IMG/VR virus record: IMGVR_UViG_2563366895_000002
Coordinates: 1-14,590 of that record
Strand: one strand, 5' to 3'
Length of the DNA: 14,590 nt
Source of the DNA: a virus
Lineage: Duplodnaviria; Heunggongvirae; Uroviricota; Caudoviricetes
Of the stretch, positions 1,165-14,590 are shown in pieces. The notes under the pieces are model-generated. The model was not told the DNA's origin. It did not search any database and saw only the letters and a list, made by a program, of their open reading frames with translations. Both the position numbers and the translations under genes were made by a program. Position 1 is the first letter of the stretch. Each line of letters starts with the position of its first letter.

Positions 1165-1296
1165 TTTCTTTCCTCTGTTATGCCATCACCCGCGCTCACC
1201 TGGACAGTATGCAGCGGAGACTGAAGCGCCGCAATGCAGGCTTGCCGTGTTGTGAGGTAAGGAGATTTTGGCTTGGTTGGATCTTTACGTGTTGCC

Positions 1297-1470
1297 TGTA
1301 AAAGCCGCGAGGACAACGCTGTCGCAGTGTTGGCGGAACTGCTGACGCGTGCTTATCCTTGTCCGCCGCTGACACCACGTATACCAGCCGCTGCGGGCCA
1401 CCCGGAGCACGCGGCACATTGCTTTGATGCTGAACTCAGCCTGATGTTTTTCAATAAAGACATACTTCAT
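1297..1470 (-). pseudogene. insF: IS3 OrfB (InsF) N-terminal fragment, truncated after ~58 codons
   Basis: [58 protein letters not shown] matches the InsF N-terminus, then diverges and hits a stop; the DDE catalytic core is absent. Confidence 0.75.
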
Positions 1471-1766
1471 TTCAGGCGCTTCGCGAAGTATGTCGCGGCC
1501 TTTTGGAGGATAGCCAGCTCTTCATCCCGTTCTGCCAGCTGGCGTTTGAGACGTGCAATCTCGGTAGACATCTCCAGTTCACGTTCAGAAGACGTCTGCT
1601 GATTTTGCTGTTTACTGCGCCAGTTGTAGAGCTGTGATTCATACAGGCTGAGTTCACGGGCTGCGGCAGTAACACCGATGCGTTCAGCAAGCTTCAGGGC
1701 TTCACTGCGAAATTCAGGCGAATGCTGTTTACGGGGTTTTTTACTGGTTGATACTGTTTTTGTCAT
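1467..1766 (-). CDS. insE: IS3 OrfA transposase subunit (InsE), 99 aa
   Basis: Translation [40 protein letters not shown]... matches IS3 OrfA; ATG at 1766 (the track's 1775 start is an upstream GTG). Confidence 0.85.
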
Positions 1767-1831
1767 GTGAGTCACCTCTGACTGAGAGTTTACTCACTTA
1801 GCCGCGTGTCCACTATTGCTGGGTAAGATCA

Positions 1832-5821: not shown

Positions 5822-5923
5822 ATGCGCACATACAATCCAAACTCTCTTCTCCCTTCACAGATGCAGAGATGCACCTGCGATTTTTTGCATCCAGCGTTTG
5901 ACCTCTGCGGAGGTGAAGCGTGA
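5822..5923 (+). CDS. ylcH: Small protein YlcH-like, 33 aa
   Basis: [36 protein letters not shown] whose stop overlaps the ybcN GTG start (GTGA); position and size match DLP12 ylcH from memory. Confidence 0.45.
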
Positions 5924-6375
5924 ATCTCCCACAAGATGGCATCAAATTACATCGCGGTAACTTCACCGCTATCGGTCGGCAGATCCAGCCTTATCTGGAG
6001 GAGGGCAAATGCTTTCGCATGGTGCTTAAACCGTGGCGTGAGAAACGCAGTCTTTCCCAGAATGCACTCAGCCACATGTGGTACAGCGAAATCAGTGAAT
6101 ACCTCATCAACAGGGGTAAAACGTTCGCCACTCCAGCTTGGGTAAAAGATGCTCTCAAACACACATATCTCGGTTATGAAACCAAAGACCTGGTTGATGT
6201 CGTAACCGGTGATATCACCACTATCCAGTCGTTACGCCATACCTCCGATCTTGATACCGGAGAGATGTATGTCTTCCTGTGTAAGGTTGAAGCCTGGGCG
6301 GTGAATATTGGCTGCCACCTGACTATTCCGCAGAGCTGCGAGTTCCAGCTGCTCCGTGACAAGCAGGAGGCGTAA
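5920..6375 (+). CDS. ybcN: YbcN, NinB/Orf-like DNA-binding protein, 151 aa
   Basis: GTG start at 5920 with GGAGG upstream; translation matches DLP12 YbcN from memory. Confidence 0.85.
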
Positions 6376-7982: not shown

Positions 7983-9080
7983 TTAGAACTGGTAAACCAG
8001 ACCTACAGCAACGATGTCATCAGTGCTTACACCGAGTGCTTTAGTGAAGTCATTTTTGTCAAGCAGGTTGATTTTGTAATCAACGAAAGTAGACATATTT
8101 TTGTTGAAGTAATAGGTTGCACCTACATCAACATATTTGACTAAGTCCTGATCGCCCCATACTCCAAGATCTTTACCTTTAGATTGCAGGTAAGCAACGG
8201 ACGGACGCAGACCGAAATCGAACTGATATTGTGCAACAGCTTCGAAGTTTTGGGCTTTATTAGCAACGAAGTGATCAGCAAATACAGTCATATTCTGGGT
8301 TTCAGAATAGGTAGTGGCCAGGTAAATGTTGTTAGCGTCATATTTCAGACCTGCGGCCCAAACTTCTGCATTTTTACCGGAAGCAAATACTTCAGGAAGA
8401 ACTTTCCCTGCATTAACTTGAGTGTCGGTACGATCAGATTTCGCATAAGTTGCACCGATACCGAATCCTTCGTATTCATAGGTAGCAGAGAAACCGAAGC
8501 CATCACCGTTACCTTCAGTGTAGTTATCGAAATCGCTACGATCGTTTTTGCCTTGGTACTGAGCAGCAAAGTTCAGACCATCAACCAGACCAAAGAAGTC
8601 GTTGTTACGATAGGTTGCAACACCAGTGGTGCGACCAGTCATGAACACATCTGTTTGGGTCCAGGTATCGCCACCGAATTCTGGCAGAACGTCAGTCCAC
8701 GCACCGATGTCGTATGCTACACCGTAGTTACGGCCGTAATCGATTGAGCCGTAGTCACCGAATTTCAGGCCTGCAAATGCAAGACGGGTTTTGTCTTTGG
8801 AGGAACCTTGAGATTCAGCGCGGTTGCCTTTGAATTCATATTCCCACTGACCGAAACCAGTCAGTTGATCGTTGATTTGGGTTTCACCTTTGAAGCCAAG
8901 ACGGGCATAAGTAGTATCACCATCATCTGCATCATTAGAGGAGAAGTAGTGCTTGGCATTAACTTTCCCGTACAGATCCAGCTTGTTACTGTCTTTATTA
9001 TAAATTTCAGCTGCCTGAGCAGACATCGCCATCAGTACTGATGCAGCTACAGCAGAAATTGCCACTGTTAATTTTTTCAT
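7983..9080 (-). CDS. nmpC: Outer membrane porin NmpC (OmpC/OmpD family), intact 365 aa with signal peptide
   Basis: Translation begins [29 protein letters not shown] and ends with the porin C-terminal ...VAVGLVYQF; full length with no interruption. Confidence 0.9.
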
Positions 9081-9668: not shown

Positions 9669-9884
9669 ATGAAATCCATGGATAAGTTAACAACGGGTGT
9701 CGCCTATGGCACCTCAGCAGGTAGTGCCGGTTACTGGTTTTTACAGCTGCTCGATAAAGTCACGCCCTCACAGTGGGCAGCAATAGGTGTGCTGGGTAGC
9801 CTGGTATTTGGCCTGCTGACGTACCTGACAAACCTTTATTTCAAGATTAAAGAAGATAAGCGCAAGGCTGCGAGAGGTGAATAA
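9669..9884 (+). CDS. essD: Pinholin (phage 21 S-type), 71 aa, with MKSM dual-start motif
   Basis: Translation [71 protein letters not shown]; ATG at 9669 (the track's 9624 start is an upstream alternative); stop overlaps the rrrD start (TAATG). Confidence 0.8.
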
Positions 9885-10381
9885 TGCCTCCATCATTACG
9901 AAAAGCCGTTGCTGCTGCTATTGGTGGCGGAGCAATTGCTATAGCATCAGTGTTAATTACTGGCCCAAGTGGTAACGATGGTCTGGAAGGTGTCAGCTAC
10001 ATACCATACAAAGATATTGTTGGTGTATGGACTGTATGTCACGGGCATACAGGAAAAGACATCATGCTCGGTAAAACGTATACCAAAGCAGAATGCAAAG
10101 CCCTCCTGAATAAAGACCTTGCCACGGTCGCCAGACAAATTAACCCGTACATCAAAGTCGATATACCGGAAACAATGCGCGGCGCTCTTTACTCATTCGT
10201 TTACAACGTGGGTGCTGGCAATTTCAGAACATCGACGCTTCTTCGCAAAATAAACCAGGGCGATATCAAAGGCGCATGTGATCAGCTACGTCGCTGGACA
10301 TATGCTGGCGGTAAGCAATGGAAAGGTCTCATGACTCGTCGTGAGATTGAGCGTGAAATCTGTTTGTGGGGTCAGCAATGA
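9884..10381 (+). CDS. rrrD: SAR endolysin (lysozyme), 165 aa
   Basis: N-terminal Gly/Ala-rich signal-anchor-release segment ([20 protein letters not shown]) followed by a lysozyme domain; matches RrrD from memory. Confidence 0.9.
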
Positions 10382-10839
10382 ACAGAGTAACCGCGATTAT
10401 CTCCGCTCTGGTTATCTGCATCATCGTCGGCCTGTCATGGGCTGTTAATCATTACCGTGATAACGCCATTACCTACAAAGCCCAGCGCGACAAAAATGCC
10501 AGAGAACTGAAGCTGGCGAACGCGGCAATTACTGACATGCAGATGCGTCAGCGTGATGTTGCTGCGCTCGATGCAAAATACACGAAGGAGTTAGCTGATG
10601 CGAAAGCTGAAAATGATGCTCTGCGTGATGATGTTGCCGCTGGTCGTCGTCGGTTGCACATCAAAGCAGTCTGTCAGTCAGTGCGTGAAGCCACCACCGC
10701 CTCCGGCGTGGATAATGCAGCCTCCCCCCGACTGGCAGACACCGCTGAACGGGATTATTTCACCCTCAGAGAGAGGCTGATCACTATGCAAAAACAACTG
10801 GAAGGAGCCCAGAAGTATATTAATGAGCAGTGCAGATAG
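10378..10839 (+). CDS. rzpD: Rz-like spanin (inner-membrane subunit), 153 aa
   Basis: ATG at 10378 overlapping the rrrD stop; N-terminal transmembrane helix and coiled-coil-like Ala/Asp/Arg-rich region. Confidence 0.85.
10598..10780 (+). CDS. rzoD: Rz1-like outer-membrane lipoprotein spanin subunit, 60 aa, embedded in rzpD in another frame
   Basis: ATG at 10598 with GGAG upstream; lipobox LVVVGC; proline-rich (PPPPPAW...PPPDW); lies entirely within rzpD. Confidence 0.8.
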
Positions 10840-11523: not shown

Positions 11524-11718
11524 TTATTCATCATCACTTTGGATTGATGTATATGCTCTCTTTTCTGACGTTAGTCTCCGACGGCAGGCTTCAATGACCC
11601 AGGCTGAGAAATTCCCAGACCCTTTTTGCTCAAGAGCGATGTTAATTTGTTCAATCATTTGGTTAGGAAAGCGGATGTTGCGGGTTGTTGTTCTGCGGGT
11701 TCTGTTCTTAGTTGACAT
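11524..11718 (-). CDS. ylcI: Small ribbon-helix-helix-like protein (YlcI-like), 64 aa
   Basis: ATG at 11718; Arg-rich N-terminus followed by a predicted strand-helix-helix pattern (RNIRFPNQMIEQINIALEQKGSGNFSAWVIEACRRRL). Confidence 0.55.
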   Translation of the reverse strand: MSTKNRTRRTTTRNIRFPNQMIEQINIALEQKGSGNFSAWVIEACRRRLTSEKRAYTSIQSDDE

Positions 11719-11879
11719 GAGGTTGCCCCGTATTCAGTGTTGCTGATTTGTATTGTCTGAAGTTGTTTTTACGTTAAGTTGATGCAGATCAATTAATACG
11801 ATACCTGCGTCATAATTGATTATTTGACGTGGTTTGATGGCGTAGATGCACGTTGTGATATGTAGATGATAATTATTAT

Positions 11880-12106
11880 CATTTTTCGGGTCCTTTCCGG
11901 CGATCCGACAGGTTACGGGGCGGCGACCTCGCGGGTTTTCGCTATTTATGAAAATTTTCCGGTTTAAGGCGTTTCCGTTCTTCTTCGTCATAACTTAATG
12001 TTTTTATTTAAAATACCCTCTGAAAAGAAAGGAAACGACAGGTGCTGAAAGCGAGCTTTTTGGCCTCTGTCGTTTCCTTTCTCTGTTTTTGTCCGTGGAA
12101 TGAACA
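11880..12106 (+). other. Lambda-type cos site (cosQ, cosN 12-nt cohesive end at 11918-11929, cosB with Nu1 R-sites)
   Basis: Sequence ...CGGGTCCTTTCCGGCGATCCGACAGGTTACG/GGGCGGCGACCTCGCGGGTTTTCGCTATTTATGAAAATTTTCCGGTTTAAGGCGTTTCCGTTCTTCTTCG... is nearly identical to the lambda cos region as I remember it, continuing into the Nu1 start codon at 12107. Confidence 0.8.
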
Positions 12107-13327
12107 ATGGAAGTCAACAAAAAGCAGCTGGCTGATATTTTCGGTGCGAGTATCCGTACCATTCAGAACTGGCAGGAGCAGGGAATGCCCGTTCTGCGAG
12201 GCGGTGGCAAGGGTAATGAGGTGCTTTATGATTCTGCCGCCGTCATAAAATGGTATGCCGAAACCATGCCACAGGCGAGTTCTGTTGTTTCAATTACGTT
12301 GATTGGTGGCGCTGGATTTAACGTGGGGTCACCTCAACAGGCAGGTATATCTGAACTTGTTTTACGTGCAGGTAATGGTAATCCGAAGGGGATTACTGGT
12401 GCTTTATGGCAGCGCACATCGACAGGGTTTACAAATTTTGCCTGGGTCAATACATCTGGTGATACTTACGATATTTACGTTGCAATCGGAAATTATGCGA
12501 CTGGTGTAAATATTCAATGGGATTATACCAGTAATGCCAGCGTGACGATTCATACGTCACCAGCATATTCTGCTAATAAGCCGGAAGGGTTAACGGACGG
12601 TACAGTTTATTCACTCTATACGCCATCAGAGCAGTTTTATCCGCCTGGCGCACCAATCCCGTGGCCATCAGATACCGTTCCGTCTGGCTATGCCCTGATG
12701 CAGGGGCAGACTTTTGACAAATCTGCATACCCGAAACTTGCAGCCGCTTATCCGTCAGGCGTGATCCCTGATATGCGTGGCTGGACGATTAAGGGCAAAC
12801 CTGCCAGTGGTCGGGCCGTATTGTCTCAGGAACAGGACGGCATTAAATCGCATACCCACAGCGCCAGCGCATCCAGTACGGATTTGGGGACGAAAACCAC
12901 ATCGTCGTTTGATTACGGCACTAAATCCACGAATAACACTGGTGCGCATACCCATAGTTTAAGTGGCAGCACGAATGCAGCTGGTAATCACAGCCATAGA
13001 GATGGCCGTCGATTTAACCCCAGTGTTTTTAAAGATACTTATCAATATGGTTATACAAGCTCAGGTCAAAATACCTGGGGTGTACAAGGCTCAGTAGGTA
13101 TGTCTACGGGGTGGTTAGCGAATACCAGTACAGATGGTAATCATAGCCATTCACTGTCCGGCACAGCAGCATCTGCAGGTGCACACGCGCATACTGTCGG
13201 TATTGGTGCTCATACGCACTCCGTTGCGATTGGTTCACATGGACACACCATCACCGTTAACGCTGCTGGTAACGCGGAAAACACCGTCAAAAACATCGCA
13301 TTTAACTATATTGTGAGGCTTGCATAA
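12107..13327 (+). CDS. Chimeric ORF: terminase small subunit Nu1 N-terminus (aa 1-~52, winged-helix DNA-binding part) fused in frame to a side tail fibre C-terminal region (~354 aa) with HxH repeats
   Basis: First 52 residues [52 protein letters not shown] match lambda Nu1; after about 12264 the sequence switches to tail-fibre-like sequence ([48 protein letters not shown]...) with six HxH motifs (GAHTHS, GNHSHR, GNHSHS, GAHAHT, GAHTHS, GSHGHT). Confidence 0.8.
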
Positions 13328-13902
13328 TGGCATTCAGAATGAGTGAACAACCACGGACCATAAAAATTTATAATCTGCTGGCCGGAACTAATGAATTTAT
13401 TGGTGAAGGTGACGCATATATTCCGCCTCATACAGGTCTGCCAGCAAACAGTACCGATATTGCACCACCAGATATTCCTGCTGGCTTTGTGGCTGTTTTC
13501 AACAGTGATAAGGCATCGTGGCATCTCGTTGAAGACCATCGGGGTAAAACGGTTTATGACGTAGCGTCAGGGGACGCGTTATTTATTTCTGAACTCGGTC
13601 CGTTACCGGAAAATGTTACCTGGTTATCGCCGGAAGGGGAGTTTCAGAAGTGGAACGGCACAGCCTGGGTGAAAGATGCAGAAGCAGAAAAACTGTTCCG
13701 GATCCGAGAGGCGGAAGAAACAAAAAACAGCCTGATGCAGGTAGCCAGTGAGCATATTGCGCCACTTCAGGATGCTGTAGATCTGGAAATCGCAACGGAG
13801 GAAGAAACCTCATTGCTGGAAGCCTGGAAAAAGTATCGGGTGTTGCTGAACCGTGTTGATACGTCAACTGCACAGGATATTGAATGGCCAGCACTGCCGT
13901 AG
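13327..13902 (+). CDS. tfaR: Tail fibre assembly protein (Tfa; TfaR/TfaQ-like), 191 aa
   Basis: ATG overlaps the stop of the upstream fibre ORF (TAATG); translation [54 protein letters not shown]... matches Rac/Qin-type Tfa from memory. Confidence 0.9.
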
Positions 13903-13999
13903 GGTAAAACATATAAATTCTATAATTAGATGTATCTTTCCATTTACGGCAAGGAAGGGGGCTTGGAAGACGTAAAGCATCTCACACCGAGATTATTTT

Positions 14000-14590
14000 T
14001 TATATGTCAGGTGTCTGAAGTTTTGCTTTGGCTCTTAAAATGGTTTGCCGCGAGGTTTTGAATTCCCGGGCAATGGCACTTATACTTACACCTGACTTAA
14101 TTCGTTCGAATACCACCTGTTTCTGTTCTTCATTTAACACAGGTGGTCGACCAAAACGTTTCCCTGCGCCGCGGGCTCTTACTATCCCGGAATGAGTGCG
14201 TTCAAGTAAAAGGTCTCGTTCAAATTCAGCGACTGCTGAAATTACGTGCATCATCATTTTTCCTGTTGGACTGGTCAGGTCAATGCCCCCCAATGCTAAG
14301 CAATGCACTCTGATACCTGTTTCGGTCAGTTGTTCCACTGTTTTCCTGATATCCATTGCATTACAACCAAGGCGATCCAGTTTTGTCACAATCAATTGAT
14401 CACCACATTTCAGGCGAGCAAGCAACCGGTTAAAACCAGGACGCTCACTGGTTGCTGCTGAGCCGCTAATGTGTTCTTCGATTATTTGCTGAGGTTTGAT
14501 TTTAAAACCTGCACTTTCGATTTCCCTGCGTTGATTTTCGATGGTCTGATCCAGCGTTGATATCCGACAGTAAGCAAAAATTCGAGACAT
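14000..14590 (-). CDS. pinR: Serine DNA invertase of the Pin/Gin/Hin/Cin family, complete 196 aa
   Basis: Start codon at the window edge (14588-14590); N-terminal catalytic motif [10 protein letters not shown] with the active-site Ser, and a C-terminal HTH ([22 protein letters not shown]). Closest to PinR/PinQ from memory. Confidence 0.9.

Follow-up and report, generated by a model that had tools for sequence, protein, structure and literature searches.

The open reading frame (ORF) at positions 12107 to 13327 of the virus record IMGVR_UViG_2563366895_000002 begins as a terminase gene and ends as a tail-fibre gene, which raises the question of how this hybrid arose and whether it has a function of its own. 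The original prediction held that one deletion of about 20 kb in lambda terms, running from early nu1 to late stf, had removed the large terminase subunit together with all head and tail genes and had left a translatable chimera of 406 aa; translatable is used here as a statement at the level of the ORF. The window, i.e. the whole stretch of 14,590 nucleotides that was analyzed, was found in the genome of E. coli WL164 with 99.986% identity (2 mismatches in 14,590), where it is located between tRNA-Arg/intD and ompT. Judged by its sequence, the window is a decayed, lambda-like prophage of E. coli at argU/intD, the DLP12 site. Its left arm is DLP12-like with an IS3 remnant, emrE, ybcK, rusA and quuD, and additionally harbors an intact nmpC-type porin gene, essD-rrrD-rzpD, bor/iss and ylcI. 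The features at and around the ORF are as follows.

11918-12106, plus strand: lambda-type cos region upstream of the scar, cosN followed by cosB up to the nu1 start (window 11918-12263 against lambda 1-347, 98.85%)
11918-11929, plus strand: 12-nt cohesive end of cosN, GGGCGGCGACCT, read directly from the sequence
12026-12082: 25-nt inverted repeat inside the cos region
12107-13327, plus strand: chimeric ORF, 406 aa, no internal stop, Nu1(1-52)::Stf(633-986) (ORF list; Pfam Phage_Nu1, Collar and Phage_fiber; PDB matches)
12107-12262, plus strand: 5' fragment of nu1, codons 1-52, winged-helix DNA-binding domain of the small terminase
12262-12263, no strand: deletion junction, 2-nt microhomology AA common to both parents (three-way alignment of window, nu1 parent and stf parent)
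12263-13327, plus strand: 3' fragment of stf, codons 633-986 of a 986-aa side tail fibre with its stop codon (distal shaft, Collar domain, HxH needle, tip)
13327-13902, plus strand: tfa, intact tail-fibre assembly gene, 191 aa (Pfam Caudo_TAP, E = 3e-44)
14000-14590, minus strand: Pin-family serine invertase gene to the right of tfa (Pfam Resolvase and HTH_7)

The start codon of tfa overlaps the stop codon of the chimera (TAATG). The encoded Tfa (WP_000885616.1) is common to WL164, E14, KSC9 and BEC1-S17-ESBL-07 (BEC1) and identical to K-12 TfaQ at 185 of 191 positions; the invertase matches K-12 PinQ at 192 of 196 positions and is the same protein as that of the intact BEC1 prophage, encoded at the same position right of tfa. 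An intact lambda-type cos, the lysis cassette, tfa and the PinQ-like invertase remain in the element, which is no longer able to package DNA or to build virions.

Both halves of the chimera could be assigned to their parent proteins. Residues 1-52 are identical to lambda gpNu1 at all 52 positions (PDB 7LW0 and 1J9I; E about 8e-29), and Pfam Phage_Nu1 (PF07471) covers residues 1-53 with 100 bits, the match ending at profile position 53 of 164. The predicted N-terminus of about 52 Nu1 codons is thus Nu1-derived. After residue 52 the sequence is that of Stf, and Nu1 residues 53-181, comprising the self-assembly and gpA-binding region, are missing; the missing residues also include the end of the DNA-binding domain. 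A tblastn search placed the beginning of the Stf part in frame at residue 633 of the 986-aa BEC1 parent. Residues 164-406 (243 residues, HxH motifs included) align to the receptor-binding tip of T4 gp37 (PDB 2XGF, E = 1.1e-85) and Pfam Collar covers residues 181-228, in agreement with the predicted continuation, without a stop, into a distal side tail fibre with a collar-like motif. Six HxH repeats had been claimed, whereas the motif count is seven (residues 249, 281, 295, 346, 360, 369 and 378). Going by their scores, the Nu1 and Stf matches are far beyond chance. The chimera is matched by gpNu1 (1J9I, 7LW0) and by the T4 gp37/Ur-lambda Stf tip (2XGF), but neither parent protein is complete in it: stf codons 1-632 are gone, and with them the N-terminal tail-attachment domain ('prophage tail fiber N-terminal domain'). 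Furthermore, no A homologue follows the chimeric ORF, A falling inside the 21.2 kb missing relative to BEC1. Sequence corresponding to window 12264-12640 is present at ≥80% coverage in 1,300 complete genomes and was annotated within a full-length prophage tail fibre in the hits sampled.

In public records the exact chimera is named 'tail fiber protein', and a truncated copy at a contig end 'terminase small subunit'; these names call for caution, because the ORF is neither. PGAP did not call the 406-aa ORF in WL164 and annotated two pseudogene fragments instead, namely a 'DNA-packaging protein' pseudogene without its C-terminus, corresponding to window 12107-12262, and a 'phage tail protein' pseudogene.

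Alignment with intact parents located the breakpoint, predicted near 12264, to the nucleotide. Nu1 homology stops at window position 12263 and stf homology begins at 12262, leaving an overlap of 2 nt (AA) as the microhomology that had been proposed to be looked for. At the breakpoint the nu1 parent reads ...GCCGAAAGGGATG (longer view ...GGTATGCCGAAAGGGATG), the stf parent ...ACGGTAACCATGCC (longer view ...CAACGGTAACCATGCC) and the window ...GCCGAAACCATGCC (longer view ...GGTATGCCGAAACCATGCC). Beyond AA, neither extended nor imperfect homology was found at the window junction in the parental alignment, and repeat finding around the chimeric ORF returned nothing relevant to the junction. On the left, the parent is nohD as found intact in prophages of the E14/KSC9 type, its DNA being 100% identical to the window up to 12263; the right parent is the full-length 986-aa stf of BEC1 with 99.96% identity from the breakpoint on.

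In BEC1 the argU/intD...ompT site is likewise occupied by a sister prophage, an intact one with intD, tfa and pin proteins identical to those of the window and with a complete late operon consisting of nohD, A, portal, protease, D, E, FI, FII, Z, U, V, G, T, H, M, L, K, I, J, lom, stf and tfa. Window 11556-12263 is 96.2% identical to its cos-nu1 region and window 12262-14590 is 99.96% identical to its stf-tfa-pin region. In comparison, the window is devoid of 21,218 bp, a value to be read as an estimate since BEC1 is a sister and not the direct ancestor (96.2% identity in the left flank). The missing segment comprises nu1 codons 53-181, A, W, B, C, D, E, FI, FII, Z, U, V, G, T, H, M, L, K, I, J, lom and stf codons 1-632, and in lambda coordinates it would span roughly 20.5 kb (about 347 to about 20,860, extrapolated). 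The proposed loss of about 20 kb from early nu1 to late stf, including the large terminase subunit and the head and tail genes A through J, is therefore borne out with both parents intact. One deletion of 21,218 bp converts the BEC1 layout into that of the window.

A hybrid of this kind could also be an assembly or sequencing artefact, or a natural gene with an ancestral architecture. The odd domain combination is what speaks for such a reading; the distribution of the junction speaks against it. A 120-nt junction-spanning probe was fully covered in one of 5,426 complete E. coli genomes (WL164); TOK-001 matched it in two pieces and has a different, unrelated junction. The exact 406-aa protein was located in 47 index blocks, on at least 39 contigs that stem from numerous independent assemblies, although isolates with the unchanged protein may be clonal; one of these contigs comprises 4.67 Mb (GCA_053151335.1), and the gene neighbourhood was identical in all six places displayed. 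As the exact protein occurs on at least 39 contigs in the same context, the junction is not an assembly error and is inherited. A search of the junction region against 5.8 billion proteins found both halves covered only by the chimera's own truncated copy, and intact parents exist at about 100% identity for either half. Going by these searches, there is no ancestral or diverse protein family with the Nu1(1-52)::Stf architecture, and both the artefact and the ancestral gene were rejected as next to impossible. The results indicate that the junction is real, goes back to one inherited event and is confined to one lineage.

The ORF is very probably a pseudogene-type deletion scar of prophage decay, a hybrid without a function of its own. 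Its origin may be pictured as follows. A lambdoid prophage at argU, the DLP12 site, would originally have had a complete late operon. Illegitimate recombination at the 2-nt AA microhomology, by microhomology-mediated end joining or by replication slippage, would then have eliminated about 21.2 kb between nu1 codon 52/53 and stf codon 632/633, the deletion starting where an A-run in nu1 stops. This event would have cost the prophage the large terminase, every head and tail gene (J and lom among them) and the part of Nu1 that serves oligomerisation and gpA binding. The frame would have been kept by chance, such that the nu1 start codon opens an ORF of 406 aa ending at the stf stop that overlaps the tfa start. 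Transcription of the chimera, if any, would occur only by read-through of the late operon, presumably from the quuD side.

A scar of two or more steps, produced by nested or successive deletions, has to be weighed against one 21-kb event. Stepwise trimming is seen in relatives: the E14 and KSC9 types share their left end in gene A while their stf ends are 130 nt apart, and in the DLP12-site prophages L022 and L024 a small remnant of C or B accompanies a pair of junctions. The window, however, holds a single junction, both flanks being colinear with intact parents right up to the breakpoint, and the junction probe revealed no genome among the 5,426 in which the stf-633 end is joined to a longer remnant of nu1 or A. 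The E14 and KSC9 types were also rejected as precursors, because both are devoid of window 12264-12392. A multi-step origin is hence considered unlikely, and single-step deletion is the simplest reading of the alignments. Alternatively, the neighbouring Pin invertase might have deleted the segment site-specifically by cleaving GCCGAAAGG and GGTAACCATG. A PinQ-like gene is located 670 bp downstream, the 2-nt AA overlap has the size of a serine-recombinase crossover, and invertases are known to reshuffle tail-fibre genes (cited in PMC3945230). Yet the e14 pix repeat gave 0 matches in the whole window with up to 3 mismatches allowed, the junction flanks, inspected by eye, are unlike Din-family half-sites, and the parental sites would be direct repeats 21 kb apart; moreover, in other strains this nu1 position has B, C or J as its partner gene. 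With neither a pix repeat nor a resemblance to Din half-sites at the junction, a Pin-mediated origin is effectively refuted.

The scar of the window belongs to a common and varied kind, of which the following examples were compared.

E14-type, DLP12 site: gene A codon 81 joined to stf, 129 nt beyond the stf end of the window; out of frame, stop 21 codons past the junction
KSC9-type, DLP12 site: gene A codon 81 joined to stf, 259 nt beyond the stf end of the window; in frame, 348 aa, 480 contigs
TOK-001: Nu1(78)::Stf(588); in frame, 477 aa
K-12 Qin (StfQ): gpA start (VNI) joined to the Stf C-terminus, A(3)::Stf; in frame
K-12 DLP12 (aaaD/tfaD): A(103)::Tfa; in frame

The KSC9 and E14 types resemble the window in their flanks (100% through nu1 codon 52, 99.9% from window 12393 or 12523 on) and in the deletion of the morphogenetic region, but they represent independent deletions with a left end in gene A (GGTTA/T). 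K-12 Qin (nohA-stfQ-tfaQ-pinQ), too, has lost the whole morphogenetic region, so that the 5' end of its packaging genes meets a 3' portion of stf, with tfa and a Pin invertase gene next in order; its 320-aa StfQ begins with gpA's own start VNI and continues in frame into the Stf C-terminus, and the Pin and Tfa proteins of Qin are 98% and 97% identical to those of the window. Qin differs in its breakpoint, which lies at A codon 3 in the nu1/A overlap instead of nu1 codon 52 so that NohA retains 175 Nu1 residues, in its chromosomal site, and in the stf allele upstream of the conserved tip. K-12 DLP12 (nohD-aaaD/tfaD) shares with the window the argU/intD ... ompT site, the left arm with emrE, ybcK, rusA, quuD, essD-rrrD-rzpD and bor, and the deletion of the late region leaving an in-frame fusion of a packaging gene with the fibre module. 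In contrast to the window, it retains a complete nohD, its deletion begins at A codon 103 and reaches into tfa so that stf is lost entirely, the pin/ydfK block is missing, and nmpC is interrupted by IS5 where the window has an intact porin gene.

For a wider survey, all proteins with a Nu1 N-terminus returned by protein search were collected and their non-Nu1 tails were mapped to lambda and BEC1 by tblastn. At least 30 independent scars joining the Nu1 N-terminus to a late gene were obtained, ending in A, B, C, E, FI, V, H, I, J, lom, stf or tfa and in one case in the lom-stf spacer. Fourteen of 30 were in frame and 16 were not (15 out of frame plus the spacer case), as compared to an expected one third (P = 0.09; 12 of 28 and P = 0.19 upon omission of the window and TOK-001), in a sample biased towards short proteins, long ones apparently being left out of the search list. 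Selection for in-frame products, as suggested by the first six junctions with five in frame, was unsupported in this wider set and is not detectable. Without a frame excess over one third, the kept frame of the window is adequately explained by chance.

With respect to the position of breakpoints within nu1, comparison of the DNA confirmed three large deletions of independent origin whose ends differ by no more than 1 nt. They read as follows, the slash marking the breakpoint.

Window: GCCGAAA/CCATGCC, joined to stf
L017/L018: GCCGAAA/CCCGCCGG, joined to gene C, 4.8-kb deletion
L020/L021: GCCGAAAG/CCCGCCAG, joined to stf, out of frame

Four more deletions end at the next A-run, 24 nt downstream.

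Next A-run: ACGAAAA/CCCGCCGG, gene C
Next A-run: ACGAAAA/CCCGAAC, gene B
Next A-run: ACGAAAA/CCACATA, gene J
Next A-run: ACGAAAA/TCCGCGG, stf

The right-hand partners of the nu1 breakpoints almost always read AA/CC. Ten of the 21 scars in codons 52-82 have their breakpoint at codons 52-53 or 60-61, i.e. at two CGAAA runs (binomial P about 1e-4), a count taken from a small sample, from a list favouring short proteins and with residue 52 as the detection floor. A broad skew of nu1 breakpoints towards early codons was discounted as an artefact of protein-search ranking, and only the pile-ups at codons 52-53 and 60-61 were kept. A mutational hot spot at the CGAAA runs in nu1 is probable. Neither CRISPR/Cas3 nor a topoisomerase, a restriction site or terminase cleavage seems to fit the orientation or sequence as an explanation of the hot spot. 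If real, the hot spot would be a small case of sequence-directed illegitimate recombination shaping prophage decay.

The chimera is probably inert, because its Nu1 part is devoid of the assembly domain and its Stf part of the tail-attachment N-terminus. A different reading would make it a domesticated anti-phage protein, produced together with Tfa, in which either the Nu1 head bound to cosB blocks packaging or the Stf tip masks a receptor. Packaging interference is known to act on the Nu1 DNA-binding domain, and the Nu1 part of the chimera also matched PDB 6HN7, a phage-interference complex directed at this domain. The fusion is in frame, the intact tfa overlaps it in a position suited to translational coupling, the tip very closely resembles that of T4 gp37, and the protein is unchanged on the contigs mentioned above, whose isolates may be clonal. 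Furthermore, the chimeric Stf remnant StfE2 of the cryptic prophage e14 was reported to block T2 adsorption (Kirigo et al. 2025; PMC12529663). Like the window, e14 with StfE2 and StfP2 has tail-fibre remnant chimeras of a cryptic prophage beside a Pin-family invertase (PMC12529663). These chimeras differ in that the e14 chimeric Stf is produced by PinQ/PinE inversion, a reversible site-specific event between pix repeats and not a deletion (PMC12529663), in that they contain no terminase part, and in that a phenotype is reported for them; the window, unlike e14, has no pix-like site. If domestication were true, the chimera would interfere with superinfecting lambda-cos/lambdoid or T-even-like phages, and the recurrent nu1 breakpoint just after the DNA-binding domain would reflect selection instead of a mutational hot spot. 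Several observations argue against it. The junction occurs in only one lineage among the 5,426 complete genomes, in-frame scars are not significantly over-represented, and P0040 is an out-of-frame scar with the identical nu1 breakpoint. Beyond residue 52 nothing of Nu1 remains, and the Stf part has no export route. A consensus scan for promoters and terminators around the chimeric ORF yielded counts within the shuffled expectation, i.e. no promoter signal above chance. Domestication is thus regarded as quite improbable as compared to an inert remnant of prophage decay.

The scar is a fresh case of a well-known kind, real but ordinary, and taken alone it matters little. It provides a nucleotide-level record of how one E. 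coli lineage disarmed the prophage at its DLP12 site and kept cos, the lysis genes, the fibre tip, tfa and pin. The family of lambdoid prophages at issue has lost its late operon many times independently. Remnants of cos/nu1 and stf/tfa are the segments shown to recombine with infecting lambdoid phages in K-12 (PMC3945230), and this wider context of repeated late-operon loss leaving cos/nu1 and stf/tfa remnants is of modest interest.

The nu1 breakpoint of the window (window 12256-12266, nu1 codons 51-53) was found again in other strains, where gene C or a different point in stf became the partner of GCCGAAA(G) in independent deletions (loci L017, L018, L020 and L021). In four further deletions (loci L022, L024, L025 and L027), the left end was ACGAAAA, located 24 nt 3' of GCCGAAA(G) in intact nu1, and the partner was C, B, J or stf. 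When all scars breaking within nu1 codons 52-82 were considered as nearby scars, codons 52-53 and 60-61 accounted for 10 of 21 breakpoints (P about 1e-4). The right-hand partners of these recurrent breakpoints nearly all showed the sequence AACC, broken between AA and CC.

A second in-frame Nu1::Stf fusion, independent of that in the window, was identified in E. coli TOK-001; its host prophage differs from that of the window, being about 92% identical:
L005 2904-4337: TOK-001 fusion Nu1(1-78)::Stf(588-986), 477 aa

The database protein P0008 represents a third fusion, Nu1(1-170)::Stf(590), and the stf ends of P0008 and the TOK-001 fusion are just two codons apart. In three other database proteins (P0060, P0069 and P0071), Nu1 residues 1-76/77 precede a stretch of non-lambda sequence, with the switch at the BglII site (AGATCT) of nu1. 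One of the three bears the name 'cloning vector pMUT13', and all of them probably represent junctions of cosmid or fosmid vectors rather than prophage scars.

Scars identical in kind to that of the window are present in K-12 MG1655:
L008 4886-6368: stfQ/nohA scar
L009 5355-6098: tfaD scar

In K-12 StfQ, the start of gpA itself (VNI) is joined in frame to the Stf C-terminus, NohA comprises Nu1(1-175) and a foreign tail of 14 aa, and TfaD is an in-frame fusion of gpA residues 61-103 with Tfa.

The E14-type and KSC9-type prophages share a left deletion end in gene A (GGTTA/T), and the relevant coordinates are:
window 12376-12400 and 12515-12538: positions of their two stf sites in the window
L002 3960-3975 and L003 3960-3975: sites in the E14-type and KSC9-type loci

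Their stf ends are two GGGATTA(C/T) sites spaced 130 nt apart; one stf join is in frame and the other out of frame. A 12-nt inverted repeat (GGGATTACTGGT / ACCAGTAATGCC) is present at these two sites, the first of which is contained in a 9-bp hairpin. Either the KSC9-type arose from the E14-type by a second deletion of 130 nt, or the two types represent independent events.

Additional features of the window are:
1285-1775 (-): IS3 remnant in place of the early region
5920-6375 (+): ybcN, internal stop flagged by PGAP in strain WL164
7983-9080 (-): nmpC-type porin gene, intact, 365 aa; IS5-disrupted in K-12
9669-10839 (+): essD-rrrD-rzpD lysis cassette, intact
11918-12106: complete lambda-type cos, matching lambda 1-347 at 98.85% identity
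13670-13868 (+): Rfam RF02111 (IS009) match, 226.7 bits (gathering score 117), wholly within the 3' half of tfa
14000-14590 (-): PinQ-like serine invertase, sharing 192/196 residues with K-12 PinQ

A pix-like crossover site for the invertase was found nowhere in the window; the enzyme, if active, could work only in trans, as has been reported for PinQ on e14 (PMC12529663). The dead terminase adjoins the retained complete cos. A helper phage with a lambda-type terminase might presumably still cut there and package chromosomal DNA rightwards.

Two other DLP12-site prophages each contain two deletion junctions (L022, 762-1572; L024, 1501-2020). In L022, nu1 codon 60 adjoins 551 nt of gene C, beyond which lies the region to the right of pin. 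The L024 prophage has nu1 codon 60 joined to 95 nt of gene B, with the same right-of-pin region beyond. The DLP12-site prophages as a family have undergone repeated, independent decay.
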